Origin: a virus | Lineage: Duplodnaviria; Heunggongvirae; Uroviricota; Caudoviricetes | DNA: 23,839 bases | Virus record (IMG/VR): IMGVR_UViG_2671180458_000011 | Strand: one strand, 5' to 3' | Shown here: positions 11,945 to 19,194 of the stretch, piece after piece | How positions within the stretch are numbered: the first letter of the stretch is position 1 | How the letters are laid out: each line of letters starts with the position of its first letter | Translations under genes and position numbers: made by a program | Notes under the pieces: generated by a model | The model's input: the letters and a program-made list of their open reading frames with translations, nothing else | Database searches by the model: none | Told to the model about the DNA's origin: nothing

Positions 11945-12505
11945 ATGCTGATTGGCTATATACGCGTATCAACAAATGACCAGAACACAGGTTTACAAAG
12001 AAATGCGCTGGAATGTGCAGGATGTGAGCAGATTTTTGAAGACAAAATGAGTGGTAAAACGACACAGCGGCCGGGACTGAAGCGGGCACTGAAGAAACTA
12101 AAACCCGGTGACACGCTGATGGTCTGGAAACTGGACAGGCTGGGGCGCAGTATGCGCCACCTTGTTGCGCTGACAGATGAATTACAGCAACAGGGGATAA
12201 ATTTTCGTAGTCTTACTGACAACATTGATACGTCAACCCCCATGGGGCGCTTCTTTTTTCACATAATGGGTGCGCTGGCAGAAATGGAGCGTGAATTAAT
12301 TGTCGAACGGACACGGGCTGGTCTTGCAGCTGCCCGTGAAAGGGGACGAACCGGCGGCAGACCCCGCCGTCTCACGCAGGAACAATACGAGCAGGTCGGG
12401 CGTTTACTGGCCGGGGGTGTCAGTCGAAGACAGGTGGCACTTATTTTTGATATCGGTCTTTCAACCCTTTATCGTTATTATCCTGCGAGCGTTTCGGAAA
12501 AATAA
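11945..12505 (+). CDS. gin: serine DNA invertase (Gin/Pin/Hin family)
   Basis: 186-aa protein beginning MLIGYIRVSTNDQNTGLQRNALECAGCEQIFEDK, near-identical in pattern to Mu Gin including the catalytic-serine N-terminal domain and C-terminal HTH; AAGGAAGG Shine-Dalgarno upstream. Confidence 0.9.
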   Translation: MLIGYIRVSTNDQNTGLQRNALECAGCEQIFEDKMSGKTTQRPGLKRALKKLKPGDTLMVWKLDRLGRSMRHLVALTDELQQQGINFRSLTDNIDTSTPMGRFFFHIMGALAEMERELIVERTRAGLAAARERGRTGGRPRRLTQEQYEQVGRLLAGGVSRRQVALIFDIGLSTLYRYYPASVSEK

Positions 12506-12604: not shown

Positions 12605-14644
12605 ATGACGTCCAAATGGGTTCAACTATCATCAATGCCCGGAAACTTTACTGTTAAAGTTTCCGGTGGTACAGCGGCATTTCTTGAGGCTCCCTTTCCT
12701 CCGGCCGAAACAAAAGGAGGAATGACATTTGCTGACTGTCTCATCAGTTTTAATACACGGGATTGCCTGTGGGTAAGGCCAGTATCCGGTGATCCGAGTG
12801 TGGAAATTACCGGAGCGGGTATTGGTGCGGTCATTCCGTTAAGTGCTGATGTTGCCGGTACTGCTGAACCGTCAGACTGGGATAATGCTGAAACACATAC
12901 CCGTCCGTCAGGAAATGAAACTGCTTCCAGCTCCCCTTCCTGGTATTACGTGGTGGTTCTTGCTGGTCAGTCAAACGGTATGGCTTACGGTGAAGGTCTG
13001 CCACTGCCGGAGACATATGACCGCCCCGAACCGCGTATTATGCAGTTAGCCCGTCGCAGTACAGTCACGCCGGGAGGTAAAGCCTGTCAGTATAACGACA
13101 TCATTCTGGCCGACCACTGTCTGCATGATGTGCAGGATATGAGTGGAAAAAATCACCCGAAAGCGGATGTGGCTAAAGGGCAATATGGCACCGTGGGTCA
13201 GGGGCTTCACATTGCCAAAAAACTGCTGCCGTTTATTCCGGCAGATGCGGGGATTCTGCTGGTTCCCTGCTGCCGTGGTGGTTCTGCATTCACGGCGGGT
13301 GCTGACGGCACGTACAGTGACAGCACGGGTGCTTCAGAGGACTCAGCCCGCTGGGGTGTGGATAAGCCGCTGTATAAGGACTTAATCAGCCGGACAAAAG
13401 CGGCACTGGCGAAGAACCCGAAAAACCGCCTGCTTGCTGTGGTGTGGATGCAGGGCGAGTTTGATATTGATGCGAAGCCGACGGAGCATTCTGCGCTGTT
13501 TCTGGCGATGGTGGAAAAATTCCGCGCAGACCTGGCTGAACAGGCGGAACAGTGTACCGGTGGCAGTGCTGCTGGCGTTCCGTGGATTTGTGGTGATACC
13601 ACGTATTTCTGGAAACAGAAAAACGAACAGGCATACCAGGCAATCTATGACGGCTACAAAAATAAAACAGATAAAAACATTCATTTCGTCCCATTAATGA
13701 CAGATGAAAATGGCGCGAATGTACCCACCAACAATCCGGCAGAAGACCCGGATATTGAATCCATTGGTTATTACGGCTCAACGTGGCGTAACAGTGCCGC
13801 CACCTGGACATCTGCGGACCGGGCCAGCCATTTCAGTTCATGGGCACGTCGTGGGATTATTTCCGACCGTCTGGCCACGGCAGTTCTGACTCATGCGGGG
13901 CGAACCACAGTAAAAGCCGATGTTCCATCTTCTGAAACTGAAGCACCAGTGCCGTCACCTTCAGAAACTGAAGCAGTAACCACAACACTGCTGTCTTACC
14001 GTGTCAGTGAGTCAGAAGGAAATCTGAAAGCCCAGGGCTGGGAGCCGGCTGGCGGTAAAGCTGAAATTATCAGTGATGCAGGAGGCACAGGTGGTAAGGC
14101 AATGAAACTGACCAAGGAAACAGGTAAATCATCCTGGTATCTGGATCATGATGCCGGTACTGGTGCTGAACTGCTGAAAAATGGTGGTTTAATCAGTTGT
14201 CGTTTTAAAGTACCGGGCGACCTGGTGGCAAACCAGTATGTCATGGCGCTTTACTGGCCGGTTTCCTCTCTGCCGCAGGGTGTCACCCTGACAGGGGATG
14301 CAGGGAATAATCTGCTGGCATCGTTCTACATCCAGACAGACGCAAAAGACCTGAATGTGATGTACCACAATGCAAAAGTGGCAACAAATAACCAGAAACT
14401 GGGAACCTTTGGTGCATTTGATAATGAATGGCATACGCTGGCCTTCCGTTTTGCAGGAAATAACAGCCTTCAGGTTATTCCGGTTATTGATGGTCAGGAT
14501 GGTGCCGCGTTTACCCTGACGCAGTCACCAGTAGGAACTTTCCCGGTGGACAAACTCCGCGTAACGGATATCACAAAAAATGCAACTTACCCGGTGCTGA
14601 TTGACAGCATTGTGGTGGAAGTGAAAAAAGCGGTAACAGAATAA
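12605..14644 (+). CDS. SGNH/SASA-type esterase with C-terminal lectin-like domain (NanS-p-like sialate O-acetylesterase candidate)
   Basis: 679 aa; GQSNG block at about residue 120, WMQGEFD block and a D-x-x-x-H block consistent with SASA/DUF303 esterases; Pro/Ser/Thr/Glu-rich linker then about 230-aa beta-rich domain. Family call from motif recognition only. Confidence 0.5.
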   Translation: MTSKWVQLSSMPGNFTVKVSGGTAAFLEAPFPPAETKGGMTFADCLISFNTRDCLWVRPVSGDPSVEITGAGIGAVIPLSADVAGTAEPSDWDNAETHTRPSGNETASSSPSWYYVVVLAGQSNGMAYGEGLPLPETYDRPEPRIMQLARRSTVTPGGKACQYNDIILADHCLHDVQDMSGKNHPKADVAKGQYGTVGQGLHIAKKLLPFIPADAGILLVPCCRGGSAFTAGADGTYSDSTGASEDSARWGVDKPLYKDLISRTKAALAKNPKNRLLAVVWMQGEFDIDAKPTEHSALFLAMVEKFRADLAEQAEQCTGGSAAGVPWICGDTTYFWKQKNEQAYQAIYDGYKNKTDKNIHFVPLMTDENGANVPTNNPAEDPDIESIGYYGSTWRNSAATWTSADRASHFSSWARRGIISDRLATAVLTHAGRTTVKADVPSSETEAPVPSPSETEAVTTTLLSYRVSESEGNLKAQGWEPAGGKAEIISDAGGTGGKAMKLTKETGKSSWYLDHDAGTGAELLKNGGLISCRFKVPGDLVANQYVMALYWPVSSLPQGVTLTGDAGNNLLASFYIQTDAKDLNVMYHNAKVATNNQKLGTFGAFDNEWHTLAFRFAGNNSLQVIPVIDGQDGAAFTLTQSPVGTFPVDKLRVTDITKNATYPVLIDSIVVEVKKAVTE

Positions 14645-14649
14645 AAAAA

Positions 14650-14678
14650 TCCCGCCGGTCATGATATGGCTGGCGGGA
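14650..14678. terminator. stem-loop after the esterase gene; canonical intrinsic terminator only when read on the minus strand
   Basis: Stem TCCCGCC/GGCGGGA (extendable with wobble pairs) with A7 run immediately 5' on the + strand, which is a U-tract 3' of the hairpin on the minus strand. Confidence 0.4.
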
Positions 14679-14790
14679 GCTACCTAACCCATAAAGGAAA
14701 ATAAAAATACTCCCGAAGGAGTGGTTATCAGTCGCTTCGATGTTTTTACCCGATAACGAATTATGTAGTCAATATCAAAGGTAAGGTTAT

Positions 14791-14973
14791 ATGACATTCG
14801 TTCATACAATGCTGCTTTATTTCTGCGCAGTGGTCAGTGCGTTATATCTGGTGAGCGGCGGTTATAAGGTCATCAGAAATTATATTCGCCGTAAAATTGA
14901 TGATGCGGCAGCTGAAAAACTCAGTAAAACAGCACAGGCACCGTCATCCCCAAACGACCCGACCCCGCTCTGA
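14791..14973 (+). CDS. small predicted membrane protein (60 aa), unknown function
   Basis: Single N-terminal hydrophobic helix then charged tail; AAAGGTAAGG Shine-Dalgarno-like sequence upstream; AT-rich foreign-looking DNA. Confidence 0.4.
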   Translation: MTFVHTMLLYFCAVVSALYLVSGGYKVIRNYIRRKIDDAAAEKLSKTAQAPSSPNDPTPL

Positions 14974-15008
14974 TAACGGGGCAATATACCTGCAAAAGGA
15001 GAATATTC

Positions 15009-15254
15009 ATGCCAGAGATTAAAGGCACGGTTACTGAAGAGCTTGTCAAACAGGCACTTTATTCTGAAGAAGTGAACCGCGTGCTGAAGGCGCAGGTTCG
15101 CAAGGATTTTGAGGCACAAATCGACGCATATGTTGATGAAGTGCTGGCCCGAATGGTTGGCCATTCTCCGGCTGAAAACAGCACGGAGAATGAGCCTCAA
15201 GCCGTAGAGCAACCAGAGCCGGTTCAGCCCGGAACTGACGGTACTATGATGTAA
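15009..15254 (+). CDS. small acidic protein (81 aa), unknown function
   Basis: AAAGGAGA Shine-Dalgarno 7 nt upstream of ATG; helical-looking N-terminal half and acidic Pro/Glu-rich tail; followed by a hairpin. Confidence 0.45.
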   Translation: MPEIKGTVTEELVKQALYSEEVNRVLKAQVRKDFEAQIDAYVDEVLARMVGHSPAENSTENEPQAVEQPEPVQPGTDGTMM

Positions 15255-15263
15255 CAATACCGA

Positions 15264-15283
15264 CCGGCAGGTTTCCCTGCCGG
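15264..15283. terminator. hairpin between convergent small genes
   Basis: CCGGCAGG-TTTC-CCTGCCGG, 8-bp stem with 4-nt loop, between the + gene ending 15254 and the minus gene ending 15293. Confidence 0.4.
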
Positions 15284-15292
15284 GTGAATTTG

Positions 15293-15463
15293 TTAATGCA
15301 CGTTTTGTGTACTTTCCCTCCGGGGAGAACAGGCAGGACATATCAGCATCCTGAAACAGGACGCATTTTGGGGTTTGTATGTCTTGCCATTTTGAGATCG
15401 AGAACGGCGATAGATGAGCTGTAAGGGAGTCTTACAGGCAGGGCAAACAGGCTCTTTATCCAT
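15293..15463 (-). CDS. small zinc-ribbon protein (56 aa, two CPAC motifs), unknown function
   Basis: Minus-strand ATG at 15463 preceded by AGGAGA with 8-nt spacing; Cys-Pro-Ala-Cys at residues 7-10 and 41-44. The ORF track's longer version (to 15487) starts upstream of the Shine-Dalgarno sequence. Confidence 0.4.
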   Translation of the reverse strand: MDKEPVCPACKTPLQLIYRRSRSQNGKTYKPQNASCFRMLICPACSPRRESTQNVH

Positions 15464-15565
15464 GATAAAGATCTCCTTTTTATGCATCTCTGCTTTACAG
15501 GAGACCGGGGAATATCATAGGATACGCCACGAGCTCGAAGTAAAGCATTGATGCGAATTTGTTCC

Positions 15566-15595
15566 AGGTCCAGATAGCTGTAACTATCTGGACCT
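15566..15595. promoter_or_regulatory. perfect 12-bp inverted repeat with 6-bp spacer (candidate operator or hairpin)
   Basis: AGGTCCAGATAG ctgtaa CTATCTGGACCT in the divergent intergenic region between the zinc-ribbon gene and com. Confidence 0.4.
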
Positions 15596-15643
15596 CCCTT
15601 TATGTAGTATCCTGTTGATTTGAAACATACTACATATACGCGC

Positions 15644-15821
15644 GATCCTACCTTCACTGTATAAAAAGTCAATAAAATGATCATTTTATGATCGTTTTCA
15701 CCACCTAAGTCTTCGTTTTCTTTAAGTAAATAATCACCGCCCTGAATCATTGTTGATGACTTTTCAATCTATTTGTTGTATCAATTAAACAAATCGAATC
15801 GATCGTTTTTGTCGATCGATT
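15644..15821 (+). promoter_or_regulatory. GATC-dense mom-operon control region (candidate Dam-methylation-sensitive promoter region)
   Basis: Five GATC sites in about 175 bp (15644, 15679, 15690, 15801, 15814), including a 9-bp inverted repeat AATCGATCG n7 CGATCGATT at 15797-15821 just upstream of com. Confidence 0.45.
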
Positions 15822-15864
15822 GCATGAGAAAGGCATCAACAACAAAGCAGGAGGTTATGCGGCC

Positions 15865-16065
15865 ATGTATCGAAACATACGGTGCCGACACTGCAATAAG
15901 CTACTGGCACGGGCCAGTTTCAGTTATCTGGAAGTAAAATGTCCGCGCTGTAAAACCCTCAATCAAATCACATCTCCGAGCGCCACAGAGCACCCCACAT
16001 ACACAAGGAAATCCTGTCGTGGGGAACAGAAAGCAAGCCACATCCCGTATCATCAGCACGCCTGA
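15865..16065 (+). CDS. com: Com-like zinc-finger translational activator of mom
   Basis: [14 protein letters not shown]...VKCPRCKTL...EHPT matches the Mu Com four-cysteine pattern; AGGAGG Shine-Dalgarno 10 nt upstream of ATG 15865 (ORF track starts at TTG 15820); 3' end overlaps the next gene as in Mu. Confidence 0.7.
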
Positions 16066-16756
16066 ACTTATTCGCTATAACGACAATATCGTTGGTTATG
16101 GCTCCCGTGAGTTGCGGGTTGAGACAATAAGTTGCTGGCTGGCCAGACTGGTCATCGTCAATAAACATTACAGCCACCGTTTCGTAAATAACTCCTACCT
16201 TCATCTGGGCATATTTTCAGAACGGGAGCTGGTTGGCGTAATGCAATGGGGCTATGCCCTTAATCCAAACAGTGGTGCACGCGTCGTAACGGGCACGCGG
16301 AACCGTGAATATATGGAGCTTAACCGGTTATGGCTGCATGACTGTATGCCGAGAAACTCCGAATCAAGGGCAATCAGTTACGCGCTCAAGCTAATCAGGC
16401 AGCTTTATCCGCAGGTACAGTGGGTTCAGTCGTTTGCAGATGAGCGTTGTGGCTGTCTTGGTGTCGTGTATCAGGCAAGCAATTTTGATTATGTAGGCAG
16501 CCACGAATCAACATTCTATGAACTTGATGGCGAGTGGTATCACGAGATTTGCAGGAATGCCATTAAACGAGGCGGACAGCGAGGTGAACATCTGAGGGCT
16601 AATATCGACAGAGCCAGTGTTCATAAATTCCGTCAGTTTCGTTACATCCGGTTTCTGAACAAGAGGGCCAGAAAACGCCTCAACACAAAGCTATTCAAAG
16701 TCCAGCCTTACCCAAAACCACAAACAGTTAAAACTGGTTTAAAAGAGAGTGAGTGA
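16019..16756 (+). CDS. mom: Mom-like DNA modification protein
   Basis: 245-aa ORF (GTG start) beginning inside the 3' end of com, the characteristic com-mom overlap; last gene before the prophage right end as in Mu. Called from context, not from remembered sequence. Confidence 0.6.
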
Positions 16757-18044
16757 ACGCTTAAAAACTCATTCTAAAACCCAAAAGAAAAGCGCCGATT
16801 TAGTATCAAATAAGTTGCGTATCGGCGTTTTTCAGCGGTATCAAATGAAATGCAAATCGGTATCAAAAAAATCGCCGCGCTATAATAAGCAGCTCAGAGC
16901 TGCCAATAAAGTCACTAACGTGCTGGATACAGAACTCACATCAGCCCGTGCCGCGGAACGTAAGGCCCAGCAAACTGCACAACAAGGTATGAAGGAAGAA
17001 GAGCGAGAGTTGTGCGCGTCACATTTTCCAGTGGTGACTTTGGAGCAATTGCCTGACATTCGCGATTTAGAACGTCAACATGAGCGGGGAATTCAGCATG
17101 AAATTGAAAGAGTTAAAGCTGAACTACATCGACTGAACATTGAGTTGACCAAACGTATGTCTGAAGCCAAACGTGTGGATACCGGGGCGCTCGTTGAGGC
17201 AGGGGCTGATTTGGACGATATTACTGTTTATTTACAGCGTTTGCAGGAACTGACCGAAGAAGCCCTGCCGGAAAAGCTCAATCGCTTCCTTGATTATCTT
17301 AACCGTTCATCCGATGACGGCGTAACACAACTGCTTAGCCATATTGAGCATGAGGTGCTGGTGATTGAGGAGCGCCTCAATGAACTCAATGAAACTATGT
17401 TCAGGGTTGATTTTCAGCCGTATCGCTACCTGCGTCTGGATACCAAAAAAGTTGTCCATGAAAGCCTGCGCACGCTTGAAAAAGCACAGCGTCAGCTAAA
17501 TGCCGCCCGATTTGTTGATGATAATGGCGAGAGCTATTATAAGGCTTTGCAGATACTGGTGGCGCAATTGCGGGATGCTTGTGAACGAAACCGTACCCTG
17601 GGAGCAAAAGCGCTACTGGATCCCCGTTTTCGACTGGAGTTCGCCGTATCGGTGATGGATCGTCAGAGCGGAAATGTGATTGAGTCTCGTACCGGCTCAC
17701 AGGGTGGTAGCGGTGGAGAAAAAGAGATTATCGCTTCTTACGTGTTAACAGCTTCACTTAGCTACGCACTTTGTCCTGCGGGGAGCCGTTATCCGCTTTT
17801 CGGTACCATTATCCTTGATGAAGCCTTCTCCCGCAGTTCTCATGCGGTGGCGGGTAGGATCATTGCCGCGCTTAGAGAATTTGGCTTACATGCAGTATTT
17901 ATCACCCCCAATAAGGAAATGCGCCTGCTGCGTGACCATACTCGTTCGGCGATTGTTGTCCACCGGCGCGGTCAGAATTCCAATATGGCTTCTCTGAGCT
18001 GGGAAGAGCTTGAACGACACTACCAGCGACGGGGGAACGCGTAG
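16749..18044 (+). pseudogene. jetC 3' fragment: C-terminal half of a Wadjet SMC-like ATPase, truncated by the prophage
   Basis: Contains signature-like GSGGEKE, Walker B IILDEAF and an H-loop His but no Walker A; the first 48 codons or so (16749-16896) are a Lys-rich read-through of phage-end sequence; coiled-coil-like sequence begins about 16897. Confidence 0.6.
16800..16896 (+). repeat. prophage right-end repeat array (candidate transposase-binding sites) ending in CA
   Basis: Three direct copies of GTATCAAA at 16803, 16838 and 16860 plus ATCGGCG/ATCGCCG motifs; GCGTTTTTC at 16825-16833 resembles part of the Mu R-end; terminal CA at 16895-16896. Confidence 0.4.
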
Positions 18045-18045
18045 G

Positions 18046-19194
18046 ATGTATTCCCCAGATGAATTGCGTGAAAAGCTTGCCCGGCAGTGGGATAGCGCAA
18101 AACTTCGGGCTGAACGCTTACTGTCCCCCGGTAACTGGCCGCTCTGCCTGCCTATTGGTAAACCTTCCACGAAAATATTTGCAGAGCAGACTCAGCGCGT
18201 TTTGCAGCACGTACAGCGATGGAGGCAAGTTGCGGTTGGGCACGTGGAATGGGAAGCGGTGAGTTATCGGGCAAGTGATACACCAGTATTAATGCCGTTG
18301 CGCTGGATTCTGAATAGCCCTTCTGAGTGGATCAACGCCGCTGCGGATCCGGTTGTGAGCCGGGAATTTCGCTTGCTGGAAGGAATTATTGAACAAGTTA
18401 ATCCCATTTTTCACCCGCTGTTGGTAAAGCATCGCTCTCTCTGGCGGCACAAAGATCCGCAGGGCGTCATCAGCGCCGCCACGCTGGCCTGCCGATTAGA
18501 GCCGGGCTGCGCAAAAGGGCTGCCGTTAAGATTGCTTTCCGGGCAAGGAGTGGATACCAAATTTATCGAGAATAATATTTCGTTATTAACCCGACTGTTA
18601 GACGTGCGGTTTTCAGGAGAAGCCAGCGAGCAGGGATTAACAACTTTTCTTGATGCTTTTGATGAGTCCAGTCACTGGGTTTTAGTTGTACCATTATCAC
18701 CCGGCTTACTTCCTTTTAAAAAATGCCGGGTAACAACGGCGGAACTGGCAGAAACAACATTACCTGCGTCGCAAGTACTGGTGGTTGAAAATGAGCAGTG
18801 TCTGCATCATCTTCCAGCATTATCTGACACTATCGCGATTTTAGGCTGTGGCCTGGACGTGCAATGGCTATCCAGTTCTGTTCTGGATGAAAAACGCGTT
18901 GCTTATTGGGGGGACATGGATAGCTGGGGATTACTGATGCTGGCGAGAGCCAGGCGCTGTCGTCCGACGCTTGATGCCCTGCTCATGAACCGTGAGTTGT
19001 TTGAGCAGTATGCCAGTCATAGCGCCGTTCCAGAACCGGTCATAGCGAAGGAAGCTGTACCTGATGGCTTGCTTAACGAAGAGGCCGATTTTTATCGCTA
19101 CTTAACCCGTTTACCGTGTGGTCGTCTGGAGCAGGAGTTTTTGCCAGTGGGGATTGCGGAAGAGGTGCTTCTCAGGTGGGGAAAAGAGAGTTAA
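18046..19194 (+). CDS. JetD-like Toprim-domain protein (Wadjet subunit D)
   Basis: ATG at 18046 two nt after the jetC stop (ORF track starts at TTG 18010); about 382 aa with VVENE and YWGDMD motifs typical of the DUF2220 Toprim-like domain. Confidence 0.65.
   Translation: MYSPDELREKLARQWDSAKLRAERLLSPGNWPLCLPIGKPSTKIFAEQTQRVLQHVQRWRQVAVGHVEWEAVSYRASDTPVLMPLRWILNSPSEWINAAADPVVSREFRLLEGIIEQVNPIFHPLLVKHRSLWRHKDPQGVISAATLACRLEPGCAKGLPLRLLSGQGVDTKFIENNISLLTRLLDVRFSGEASEQGLTTFLDAFDESSHWVLVVPLSPGLLPFKKCRVTTAELAETTLPASQVLVVENEQCLHHLPALSDTIAILGCGLDVQWLSSSVLDEKRVAYWGDMDSWGLLMLARARRCRPTLDALLMNRELFEQYASHSAVPEPVIAKEAVPDGLLNEEADFYRYLTRLPCGRLEQEFLPVGIAEEVLLRWGKES

Follow-up and report, generated by a model that had tools for sequence, protein, structure and literature searches.

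Two small plus-strand genes in the cargo region of a Mu-like prophage, which encode the DUF1378 and DUF826 proteins, appear from gene order and sequence comparison to be the constant 3′ half of a mobile esterase cassette and no free-standing module. The window, by which we mean the whole 23,839-nt stretch of DNA analyzed here, is the right end of a Mu-like Escherichia coli prophage of the Sakai Sp18 type, and the genes under study occupy a slot with gin on one side and com-mom on the other. A sequence-only reading had placed them in a cargo region, which is what this accessory DNA is, and had described a cluster of three small proteins; this cluster dissolved, because the third ORF is a pseudogene fragment in a variable slot. 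The explanation that best accounts for the whole, and that we somewhat favor, combines cassette membership of the pair, a pseudogene third ORF and a model in which the pair is a membrane-tethered accessory of the esterase. The features are listed in Table 1.

Table 1. Features of the esterase cassette and of the adjoining slot, with coordinates in the window.
Feature	Coordinates	Strand	Remarks
NanS-p-type sialate O-acetylesterase, 679 aa, first cassette gene	12605-14644	+	Pfam SASA, DUF6645
Predicted sRNA, ~94 nt	14643-14736	-	EcOnc37 match, PasC-like build; predicted ends
Promoter-like motif of the sRNA	14743-14772	-	TTGACT (14772-14767), 18 nt, TAAAAA (14748-14743)
DUF1378 family protein, 60 aa	14791-14973	+	PF07125, phrog_494
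DUF826 protein, 81 aa	15009-15254	+	PF05696, phrog_311
Terminator-like hairpin closing the cassette	15264-15283	+	CCGGCAGG-TTTC-CCTGCCGG
Frameshifted remnant of the 154-aa orphan ORF ECs_4996	15293-15750	-	RefSeq: one frameshifted pseudogene
Perfect 12-bp hairpin inside the minus-strand pseudogene, terminator-like on the plus strand	15566-15595	+	Top terminator-like site

Profile searches against Pfam and PHROG identified the first ORF as DUF1378 and the second as DUF826. The DUF1378 protein scored 131.5 bits against its Pfam model (cut-off 25, E 1e-38), with residues 1-59 of the 59-position model covered, and DUF826 scored 57.1 bits (cut-off 25, E 2e-15) over residues 1-54, with a PHROG match at E 3e-30. 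Both are nearly identical to RefSeq proteins that already bear these names. On these sequence matches, the identity of the two proteins and their membership in the cassette are very likely. The proteins had been called uncharacterised, which holds for their function but not for the databases, where Pfam and RefSeq both name them. As a finding they are ordinary, being members of catalogued families that call for no new category. In the literature, a single relevant paper mentions DUF1378 and DUF826, as mere entries in a list, and we found no dedicated study; searches for ECs4993-4996, ECs1208/1209, Z1467/8 and L0106/7 returned nothing relevant.

The two genes lie in tandem and each has the good Shine-Dalgarno sequence that had been noticed (TAAGG, 4 nt before the ATG of DUF1378; AAGGAG, 7 nt before that of DUF826). 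DUF1378 also fits its description as a single-helix membrane protein: residues 3-21 make up its one strongly hydrophobic segment (Kyte-Doolittle 2.02), the tail behind them is basic, and the whole protein, of pI 9.3, is predicted to span the inner membrane once, with a very short N-terminus outside and the basic C-terminus in the cytoplasm. An SGGY-(K/R) motif and a basic/IDxxAxEK cytoplasmic segment are conserved, and such strong and specific conservation of the cytoplasmic tail suggests that it has a partner protein and does not simply form pores.

DUF826 is acidic, as stated before (pI 4.36; D+E = 16 versus K+R = 7), and has three parts: residues 1-54 form a conserved helix-turn-long-helix core, the tail after it is Pro-rich, acidic and disordered, and the C-terminal tip is hydrophobic. 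In its AlphaFold2 model, residues 11-50 reach a mean pLDDT of 83-97 and the tail stays below 50. We take DUF826 to be cytoplasmic, with its core helical and its acidic tail disordered. This structure prediction led to no known fold: Foldseek returned nothing at E <5 from the PDB and BFVD, and a sequence search against solved structures gave no match. A HMMER scan of 1.84 billion representatives with the DUF826 profile found just 42 small clusters and no informative fusions. Only one protein runs on from DUF1378 into DUF826, and it has the look of a frameshift or of an incomplete contig; the "head completion protein" label given to DUF826 in some phage records is backed by no profile.

Both genes are under strong purifying selection, with dN/dS values, computed from unsaturated pairs, of 0.08 for DUF1378 and 0.13 for DUF826 (about 0.1). 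Residues are kept across lineages that are only 47-88% identical. The two families are confined to prophages of Escherichia, Shigella and Citrobacter (DUF1378 homologues occur in E. coli, Shigella and Citrobacter), and a scan of species-representative genomes with DUF1378 gave no confirmed relative, which fits a narrow, strain-variable distribution. Both ORFs are conserved in related prophages, and by these signatures they are genuine phage genes that look translated.

How constant is the association with the esterase? In all 92 DUF1378 loci that we surveyed, on lambdoid and Mu-like backbones alike, DUF826 directly follows DUF1378, and a NanS-p-type esterase directly precedes DUF1378 in 91 of the 92. 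Conversely, both DUF genes stand behind the esterase in 72/73 cases, counted over close esterases with enough downstream DNA. The cassette reads esterase, antisense sRNA gene, DUF1378, DUF826 and terminator-type hairpin. In lambdoid Stx phages it lies behind stx and ahead of the holin gene; in Mu-like prophages, its neighbors are the tail-fibre/gin region on one side and com-mom on the other.

A close counterpart is the NanS-p region of Stx phages (933W L0105/z1466; phi24B gp84/vb_24B_21), which shares the order esterase-DUF1378-DUF826 and the terminator with the window but has stx upstream and holin downstream, neither of which the window has. NanS-p homologues are active Neu5,9Ac2 esterases (PMC8065619), and the phi24B homologue decorates the capsid, to which DUF1737 anchors it (bioRxiv 10.64898/2026.04.10.717836). 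Whereas the lambdoid relatives carry this capsid-binding domain, the window esterase has a Mu-lineage-specific N-terminal domain of ~105 aa in its place, and DUF1737 (PF08410) matched neither the whole protein nor residues 1-112. In its catalytic and C-terminal, lectin-like domains it shares 80-81% identity with the esterase of a Stx2 phage. The DUF genes nevertheless are closest to the other Mu-like lineage, with only ~52% (DUF1378) and ~35% (DUF826) identity to the Stx-phage alleles. Thus, with Stx-phage-like esterase domains and Mu-lineage-like DUF genes side by side, adjacency survives recombination. The esterase also occurs without the pair, in the EPEC prophages PP2 and PP5 (where PasA or PasC accompanies it) and in loci of E. 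albertii and an Escherichia sp., and the pair is thus dispensable for the esterase.

The 3′ limit of the cassette is marked by a hairpin (stem 15264-15271/15276-15283), whose T-tail is weak in the window. Hairpins had been thought to separate all three ORFs; this one does stand between DUF826 and the minus-strand ORF, but there is no comparable hairpin between the two DUF genes. In each of the five lineages that we folded, a hairpin directly follows DUF826. It is a canonical terminator, with stem and T-run, ahead of the holin gene in two lambdoid E. coli loci (L002 and L003), and it lacks the canonical T-run in a Mu-like (L010) and a Citrobacter (L005) locus. By standing between DUF826 and the holin gene, where there is one, this hairpin groups the pair with the esterase and not with the lysis genes.

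The spacer between the esterase and DUF1378 yielded a new side finding, a predicted minus-strand sRNA gene whose product is putatively Hfq-bound. The predicted RNA contains two hairpins. The internal one occupies 14709-14722 and has a U-run; the other, a terminal GC hairpin at 14650-14678 with T7, stands right against the esterase stop codon. In the promoter-like motif of the sRNA, 18 nt separate the -35 box from the DUF1378 start codon, and the -10 box is weak, the usual final T being missing. A TTGAC[AT]-N17/18-T.A.AA pattern is conserved at this fixed position in divergent lineages. The sRNA architecture is the same in 107/115 loci, which comprise 40 distinct versions, and compensatory changes are seen in five of the eight terminator pairs. 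The spacer matches its Sakai counterpart, ECs4993-ECs4994, at 100% identity, and Hfq CRAC tables list both that spacer, as ECs4993...ECs4994, and EcOnc37 (minus strand of Sp18; sRNA sources PMC8550237, table S6, and PMC4104026, tables S1 and S2). The EcOnc37 coordinates refer to an older Sakai sequence version and have to be shifted by an assumed offset of ~140 nt to fall within the spacer; the entry that names the spacer is independent of this offset.

To which known sRNAs does this gene compare? PasA and PasC of EPEC and the EcOnc sRNAs of EHEC share with it a minus-strand gene directly after the esterase stop, a TTGAC-N17/18 promoter, a body of 75-105 nt and a GC hairpin with U-run. PasC has the same position and promoter spacing as the window sRNA, and in EPEC a TTGACA stands exactly 29 nt upstream of the mapped PasC 5′ end. 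The body of the window sRNA, however, has no significant similarity to PasA or PasC: in a comparison limited to alignment, just the terminator arms line up with PasC, and blastn-short found no match in the window for PasA or for the EPEC PP2 spacer that holds it. The next feature also differs, being a holin gene or an IS element in EPEC and the DUF pair in the window. Rfam gave no credible match in the whole window or in a relaxed scan of 14400-16100. AsxR, AgvB and STnc100 were considered and ruled out, since they sit upstream of the esterase gene.

What is the function of the pair? We found no homology that assigns an activity to DUF1378 or DUF826. Because the sRNA promoter stands so close to the start codon of DUF1378 that no further promoter would fit between them, the pair most likely relies for its translation on transcripts that continue out of the esterase gene, and such transcripts would be complementary to the sRNA. 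We propose that the basic tail of DUF1378 would bring the acidic DUF826 to the inner membrane, an interaction that we infer solely from charge, adjacency and co-inheritance. The resulting complex, itself dispensable, would be active at the membrane during phage development and may serve the esterase, which has no signal peptide, for example in its handling or release; it would not be a toxin-antitoxin system. A membrane protein is no obvious helper for a cytoplasmic or virion-bound enzyme, which counts against an accessory role, and we advance this specific mechanism tentatively, as a possible but doubtful one.

Alternatively, the pair could set the timing of lysis, with DUF1378 opposing the holin as an antiholin, or modulating it, from within the inner membrane and DUF826 as its cytoplasmic co-factor. 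T4 RI/RIII and P1 LydA/LydB are lysis modulators with a layout resembling that of the pair. Like T4 RI/RIII and P1 LydB, the pair combines one small membrane protein with one small cytoplasmic helical protein, is dispensable, as is usual for lysis modulators, and, in lambdoid phages, has the holin-endolysin genes directly downstream. Moreover, DUF1378 and DUF826 alleles group by phage backbone, as expected if the partner were backbone-specific. However, there is no sequence or fold similarity to these modulators and no Pfam holin or antiholin match for the pair. In all Mu-like loci the pair is unlinked to lysis genes, standing far from them in its cargo slot, and the window has none near it. 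Where a holin gene does follow, in lambdoid phages, a hairpin intervenes, which in two E. coli loci is a strong, canonical terminator and in Citrobacter is weaker, and the P21-type holin is the same with or without the pair. We thus consider a role in lysis timing unlikely.

The sequence-only reading had instead seen in a small membrane protein with an acidic partner the pattern of toxin-antitoxin, superinfection-exclusion and abortive-infection modules. DUF1378 would then damage membranes as a toxin, or act as an exclusion protein, and would be restrained by the antisense sRNA (type I-like), by DUF826 (type II-like) or by both, and the outcome would be addiction, abortive infection or superinfection exclusion. 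At 60 aa, with one helix and a charged tail, DUF1378 is physically built like type I toxins and small exclusion proteins, although with its one transmembrane segment it is at the upper end of the usual type I toxin size; DUF826 is suitably acidic. Type I loci such as tisB/istR-1 and zor/orz have a divergent or upstream antisense sRNA. Like them, the window has the gene of a small hydrophobic protein with an opposite-strand sRNA gene directly upstream, here conserved and complementary to transcripts that enter DUF1378 from upstream, and this gene weakly keeps the type I-like variant alive.

Several features speak against such a module. In contrast to tisB/istR-1 and zor/orz, the ribosome-binding site in the window is left uncovered (the predicted sRNA 5′ end is 55 nt upstream of the DUF1378 ATG), a second protein gene always follows, and the whole sits inside an esterase operon. 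The sRNA overlaps only transcripts that start upstream of it. This sRNA type, again unlike those of the two type I loci, also exists without the protein: the same family persists where the DUF pair is absent, as in EPEC, and has many trans targets (PasA/PasC type; PMC8550237). In lambdoid phages the pair belongs to late, induction-dependent transcription units, and the conserved cytoplasmic tail of DUF1378 points to a protein partner rather than a pore. PADLOC gave zero matches for either protein at E up to 1, and NCBIfam and Pfam, relaxed scans included, returned just the two DUF families and sub-threshold noise, with no toxin or antitoxin family above threshold. We therefore found no positive evidence for the suggested pattern in a pair that is tied to an upstream esterase, and there is no support here for a new toxin-antitoxin or defence module; the toxin reading is improbable. 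A bolder variant is a three-part switch, in which the sRNA would gate a membrane-active DUF1378 and the acidic DUF826 while all three travel with the esterase between unrelated backbones. Such a switch might be a hybrid type I/II-like toxin-antitoxin system or a lysis/release timer, possibly the exit route of NanS-p, and we regard it as a long shot.

The third ORF is no part of the DUF1378-DUF826 pair but the broken tail of a decaying gene. Its letters are as first described: 56 codons run from an ATG at 15463 down to 15293 on the minus strand, with two CPAC motifs and four cysteines. It is not, however, a gene in its own right. In Sakai Sp18, ECs_4996 is intact (154 aa); relative to it, one G is missing from the window between 15458 and 15457, and this 1-bp deletion leaves the CPAC ORF as the out-of-frame C-terminal part of the remnant. 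The ECs_4996 family comprises just 28 near-identical relatives among 5.8 billion proteins, with no distant homologues found among them. The frame differs in most relatives, in which versions of 154, 153, 137, 135, 106, 97, 93 and 56 aa occur, and the pN/pS of the ORF is 0.25-0.9. AlphaFold2 modelled the intact protein at a pLDDT of 38, so this model was left out of the fold search. The hairpin inside the pseudogene differs between the window and Sakai at six positions on both arms, and its stem is also preserved in a third variant. All in all, the ORF is in all likelihood a pseudogene fragment. That the frameshift created or preserved a zinc-ribbon protein with a function of its own is highly improbable: an AAGGAG 9 nt before the ATG, the four cysteines and weak zinc-ribbon matches (best Trm112p, 17.3 bits versus a cut-off of 22) would suit the zinc ribbon first assigned to it, but these matches are sub-threshold, the same codons form the C-terminus of the 154-aa ORF in Sakai, relatives come in eight lengths within a small family without distant members, one allele has lost the first CPAC by a double frameshift, and another Mu-like lineage has unrelated DNA in this slot, with an unrelated 97-aa ORF.

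DUF1378 and DUF826 occur in most Stx-converting phages, between the toxin and lysis genes. To this, our analysis adds three points: (i) the pair belongs with the NanS-p esterase; (ii) the cassette is also present on Mu-like prophages; and (iii) a putative Hfq-binding sRNA gene lies against the DUF1378 start. The value of these points is modest and is one of context, for esterase release, for the lysis physiology of Stx phages and for the function of prophage sRNAs in enterohaemorrhagic E. coli.

Annotation of the best-matching genomes and of Sakai identifies the window as the right-hand end of an Sp18-type Mu-like prophage (see table). Given the gene order, the sequence-only reading was fair in placing the small ORFs in a cargo region. 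The segment 14650-15560 had matches in 219 of 5,426 complete E. coli genomes, most of them O157:H7 or other Shiga-toxin-producing strains. Next to mom, just beyond the prophage end (~16880), the DNA encodes the C-terminal portion of a JetC-like SbcC/RAD50 protein together with a whole JetD, and the prophage appears to sit in jetC of an anti-plasmid Wadjet system. A CP4-type island segment follows the Wadjet genes.

Features of the prophage right end and its flank, in gene order
Feature	Position	Strand	Remarks
Tail sheath, tube, tape measure, baseplate and tail fibre genes			first in gene order, before gin; annotation
gin (invertase)	11945-12505		annotation
Esterase gene	12605-14644		679 aa; annotation
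Esterase N-terminal domain	12605-12920		residues 1-105
Predicted sRNA gene, promoter to terminator	14643-14772	-	RNA ~94 nt; terminator abuts esterase stop codon
ORF1 (DUF1378)	14791-14973	+	60 aa
ORF2 (DUF826)	15009-15254	+	81 aa
DUF826 tail	15170-15254	+	residues 55-81
Hairpin	15264-15283		between ORF2 and minus-strand ORF
Minus-strand ORF	15293-15750	-	one frameshifted pseudogene per RefSeq
CPAC frame	15293-15463	-	56 codons
Hairpin	15566-15595		perfect, 12 bp; mid-pseudogene
GATC-rich elements	15680-15700, 15797-15821		5' of com
com	15865-16065		annotation
mom	16019-16756		annotation
JetC-like (part) and JetD	16749-19194		past prophage end
CP4-type segment	19748-21848	-	CbtA toxin (type IV toxin-antitoxin), DUF5983 and DUF4942 genes

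Both tandem plus-strand ORFs are present exactly as first described, with TAAGG 4 nt 5' of the ORF1 ATG and AAGGAG 7 nt 5' of that of ORF2. Pfam assigns ORF1 to DUF1378 over its full length (131.5 bits) and ORF2 to DUF826 (57.1 bits). Near-identical proteins in the matching genomes already bear these names in RefSeq, and both fall into PHROG families of unknown function; "uncharacterised" thus holds for what the two proteins do but not for their families. The low dN/dS of allele pairs with unsaturated synonymous sites (0.08 for DUF1378, 0.12–0.13 for DUF826) shows that both are real genes. The sole strongly hydrophobic stretch of ORF1, residues 3-21, is followed by KVIRNYIRRK, for which the positive-inside rule predicts an outside N-terminus and a cytoplasmic C-terminus. 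The DUF1378 product is therefore predicted to be anchored in the membrane and to extend a basic tail into the cytoplasm, and the DUF826 product to be cytoplasmic and, as first noted, acidic (pI 4.36). Across DUF1378 alleles just 47–88% identical, an LYL(V/L)SGGY(K/R) motif and a basic/IDxxAxEK cytoplasmic segment are conserved. In DUF826, residues 1-54 are conserved among alleles, and an AlphaFold2 model shows a short and a long helix (mean pLDDT 83–97 at residues 11-50) and a disordered tail. Among relatives (including P0148-P0182) this tail is acidic, proline-rich and variable in length and sequence, and often closes with a hydrophobic tip (TMM, ATML, ATLL or LMQQ), resembling a docking peptide on a flexible linker. 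Searches of solved structures and predicted folds with DUF826 gave no match. Both families are tiny: a full HMMER scan found 42 DUF826 clusters among 1.84 billion cluster representatives, and DUF1378 homologues are limited to E. coli, Shigella and Citrobacter, with none in the species-representative genome set.

Loci were gathered through a phage collection, exact-protein look-ups and IMG/VR scans, and their ORFs were then profile-searched. Conservation of the neighbourhood across prophages was borne out for the two plus-strand genes: DUF826 lies directly 3' of DUF1378 in 92/92 DUF1378 loci, lambdoid and Mu-like alike, and a SASA/DUF6645 esterase gene directly 5' in 91 of the 92. About 57 loci are lambdoid (esterase-DUF1378-DUF826-holin-lysozyme, with stx upstream in some) and about 35 Mu-like ([gin]-esterase-DUF1378-DUF826-variable minus-strand ORF-com-mom). 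Close esterase homologues with sufficient downstream DNA were followed by both DUF genes in 72 of 73 cases. Hairpins had been said to separate all three ORFs; one does lie between ORF2 and the minus-strand ORF, but none lies between ORF1 and ORF2 of the window. At the corresponding site after DUF826, two E. coli lambdoid loci have a strong canonical intrinsic terminator before the holin gene; the hairpin is weaker in the window, in a lambdoid locus of Citrobacter and in the second Mu-like lineage. Because the order is constant and a hairpin follows DUF826, the esterase-DUF1378-DUF826 trio is a bounded unit, to be grouped with the esterase and apart from the lysis genes. A role of the pair in lysis timing, which would fit its lambdoid position, is unlikely: its Mu-like position does not fit, and a terminator intervenes before the holin gene.

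The trio is mosaic. The catalytic and C-terminal domains of the window esterase are 80–81% identical to those of Stx2 phage ArgO145, versus just 69–75% for the other Mu-like lineage, whereas its N-terminal domain and the DUF genes follow the Mu-like backbone; gene adjacency has outlasted recombination. After more distant esterases (E. albertii, Escherichia sp., EPEC prophages PP2 and PP5) the pair is absent, and a holin gene or sRNA genes follow directly. The dependence is one-way: the esterase can do without the pair, not the reverse. NanS-p enzymes are active Neu5,9Ac2 esterases (PMC8065619), and the phi24B homologue decorates the capsid through an N-terminal DUF1737 domain (bioRxiv 10.64898/2026.04.10.717836). 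DUF1737, the capsid-binding domain of phi24B gp84, was not found in the window esterase, which instead begins with a different domain common only to the other Mu-like lineage (60% identity). This domain may be a virion-attachment domain exchanged between phage morphotypes.

What does the 146-nt spacer separating the esterase gene from DUF1378 contain? Immediately 3' of the esterase stop codon it carries an A7 run and a GC hairpin, kept in 5/5 aligned lineages, that form a canonical terminator on the minus strand; 5 of 8 terminator pairs show compensatory changes. The promoter-like motif of the window is TTGACT-18-TAAAAA, and minus-strand TTGAC[AT]-N17/18-T.A.AA, followed after 73–104 nt by a GC hairpin with T6-8, recurs in 107 of 115 loci (40 distinct versions). 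The predicted gene is built like that of PasC of EPEC E2348/69, a 78-nt Hfq-dependent, Northern-validated sRNA (PMC8550237 table S6) whose 3' end directly follows the esterase stop codon and whose 5' end lies exactly 29 nt past TTGACA; PasA has the same build. Among the intergenic regions that bound Hfq strongly in a Sakai crosslinking study was the ECs4993...ECs4994 spacer, and the same study lists EcOnc37 as a minus-strand Sp18 RNA with a predicted terminator (PMC4104026 supplements). This Sakai spacer and that of the window are 100% identical, and by that identity the window very probably encodes EcOnc37 (~14736 down to 14643). An Rfam scan of the window returned no family for it; AsxR, AgvB and STnc100 were rejected as candidates, all being on the opposite side of the esterase gene. 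The pair thus has the esterase gene and an antisense sRNA gene on its 5' side and a terminator-type hairpin on its 3' side. Since 18 nt separate the sRNA -35 box from the DUF1378 ATG, this gap has no room for a separate DUF1378 promoter. Transcripts entering DUF1378 from upstream are complementary to the sRNA, which leaves the ribosome-binding site uncovered. A 2026 preprint describes esterase-PasA-holin synteny and nowhere mentions the DUF pair. The EPEC esterase-holin gaps (PP2, L171 2467-2913; PP5, L172 2532-2965) lack both DUF genes, and in PP2 the gap is 447 nt long and contains a tandem pair of PasC/PasA-type sRNA units plus a terminator on the plus strand; one and the same site may therefore take sRNA units and the DUF pair as alternatives or in succession.

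The minus-strand ORF with two CPAC motifs exists, but as a pseudogene fragment rather than a separate gene. It is overlapped by a 135-codon ORF in a different frame, and at the same site Sakai has the intact 154-aa ECs_4996, with both motifs in its C-terminus. Compared with Sakai, a single G is missing from the window between 15458 and 15457, a loss that puts the zinc-ribbon part out of frame and leaves an ATG by accident in frame with it. ECs_4996 has just 28 relatives among 5.8 billion proteins, all close kin from the same prophages; frames among relatives and independent loci run to 154, 153, 137, 135, 106, 97, 93 or 56 codons, and a double frameshift cost one allele the first CPAC. The pN/pS of the N-terminal 50 codons (0.25–0.9) is far more relaxed than in the DUF genes, and in the second Mu-like lineage this slot is filled by unrelated DNA carrying another ORF, of 97 aa. 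From frame decay, few relatives, relaxed pN/pS and a variable slot we conclude that the product is not a partner of the pair. An AlphaFold2 model of intact ECs_4996 was unusable (pLDDT 38).

Mu-like lineages thus carry mutually unrelated minus-strand ORFs in the slot that runs from the DUF826 terminator to the com control region: an ECs_4996-like ORF, as in the window, or a 97-aa or 86-aa ORF (L008-L011, 6641-6934, minus strand); both types occur in gin-bearing loci. The hairpin mid-pseudogene differs from that of Sakai at six positions on both arms in a compensatory manner, and a third variant folds too; what selection maintains there is the fold of the nucleic acid, not the encoded amino acids. 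Among plus-strand sites that look like terminators it ranks first in the region, and it may insulate com-mom from upstream transcription. The GATC-rich elements before com, including the palindrome AATCGATCG-N7-CGATCGATT, are shared by both Mu-like lineages and look like the region through which Dam and OxyR control mom in Mu.

What, then, might the pair do? We tentatively suggest that DUF1378 and DUF826 could form a membrane-tethered complex, produced from esterase read-through transcripts, that would serve as an esterase accessory during phage development; this is the best of the readings considered, though of low probability. A toxin-antitoxin or exclusion role of the pair, for which the pattern of the two proteins and the nearby sRNA speak, is improbable. 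The three-protein toxin-antitoxin or abortive-infection module once suspected is not supported, with no match for the pair in PADLOC, toxin, antitoxin or holin profile searches and a pseudogene fragment as third member. The original observation is therefore partly confirmed. Its significance is low to moderate, and what value it has comes from the sRNA and the conserved architecture of the cassette, each cheaply testable.
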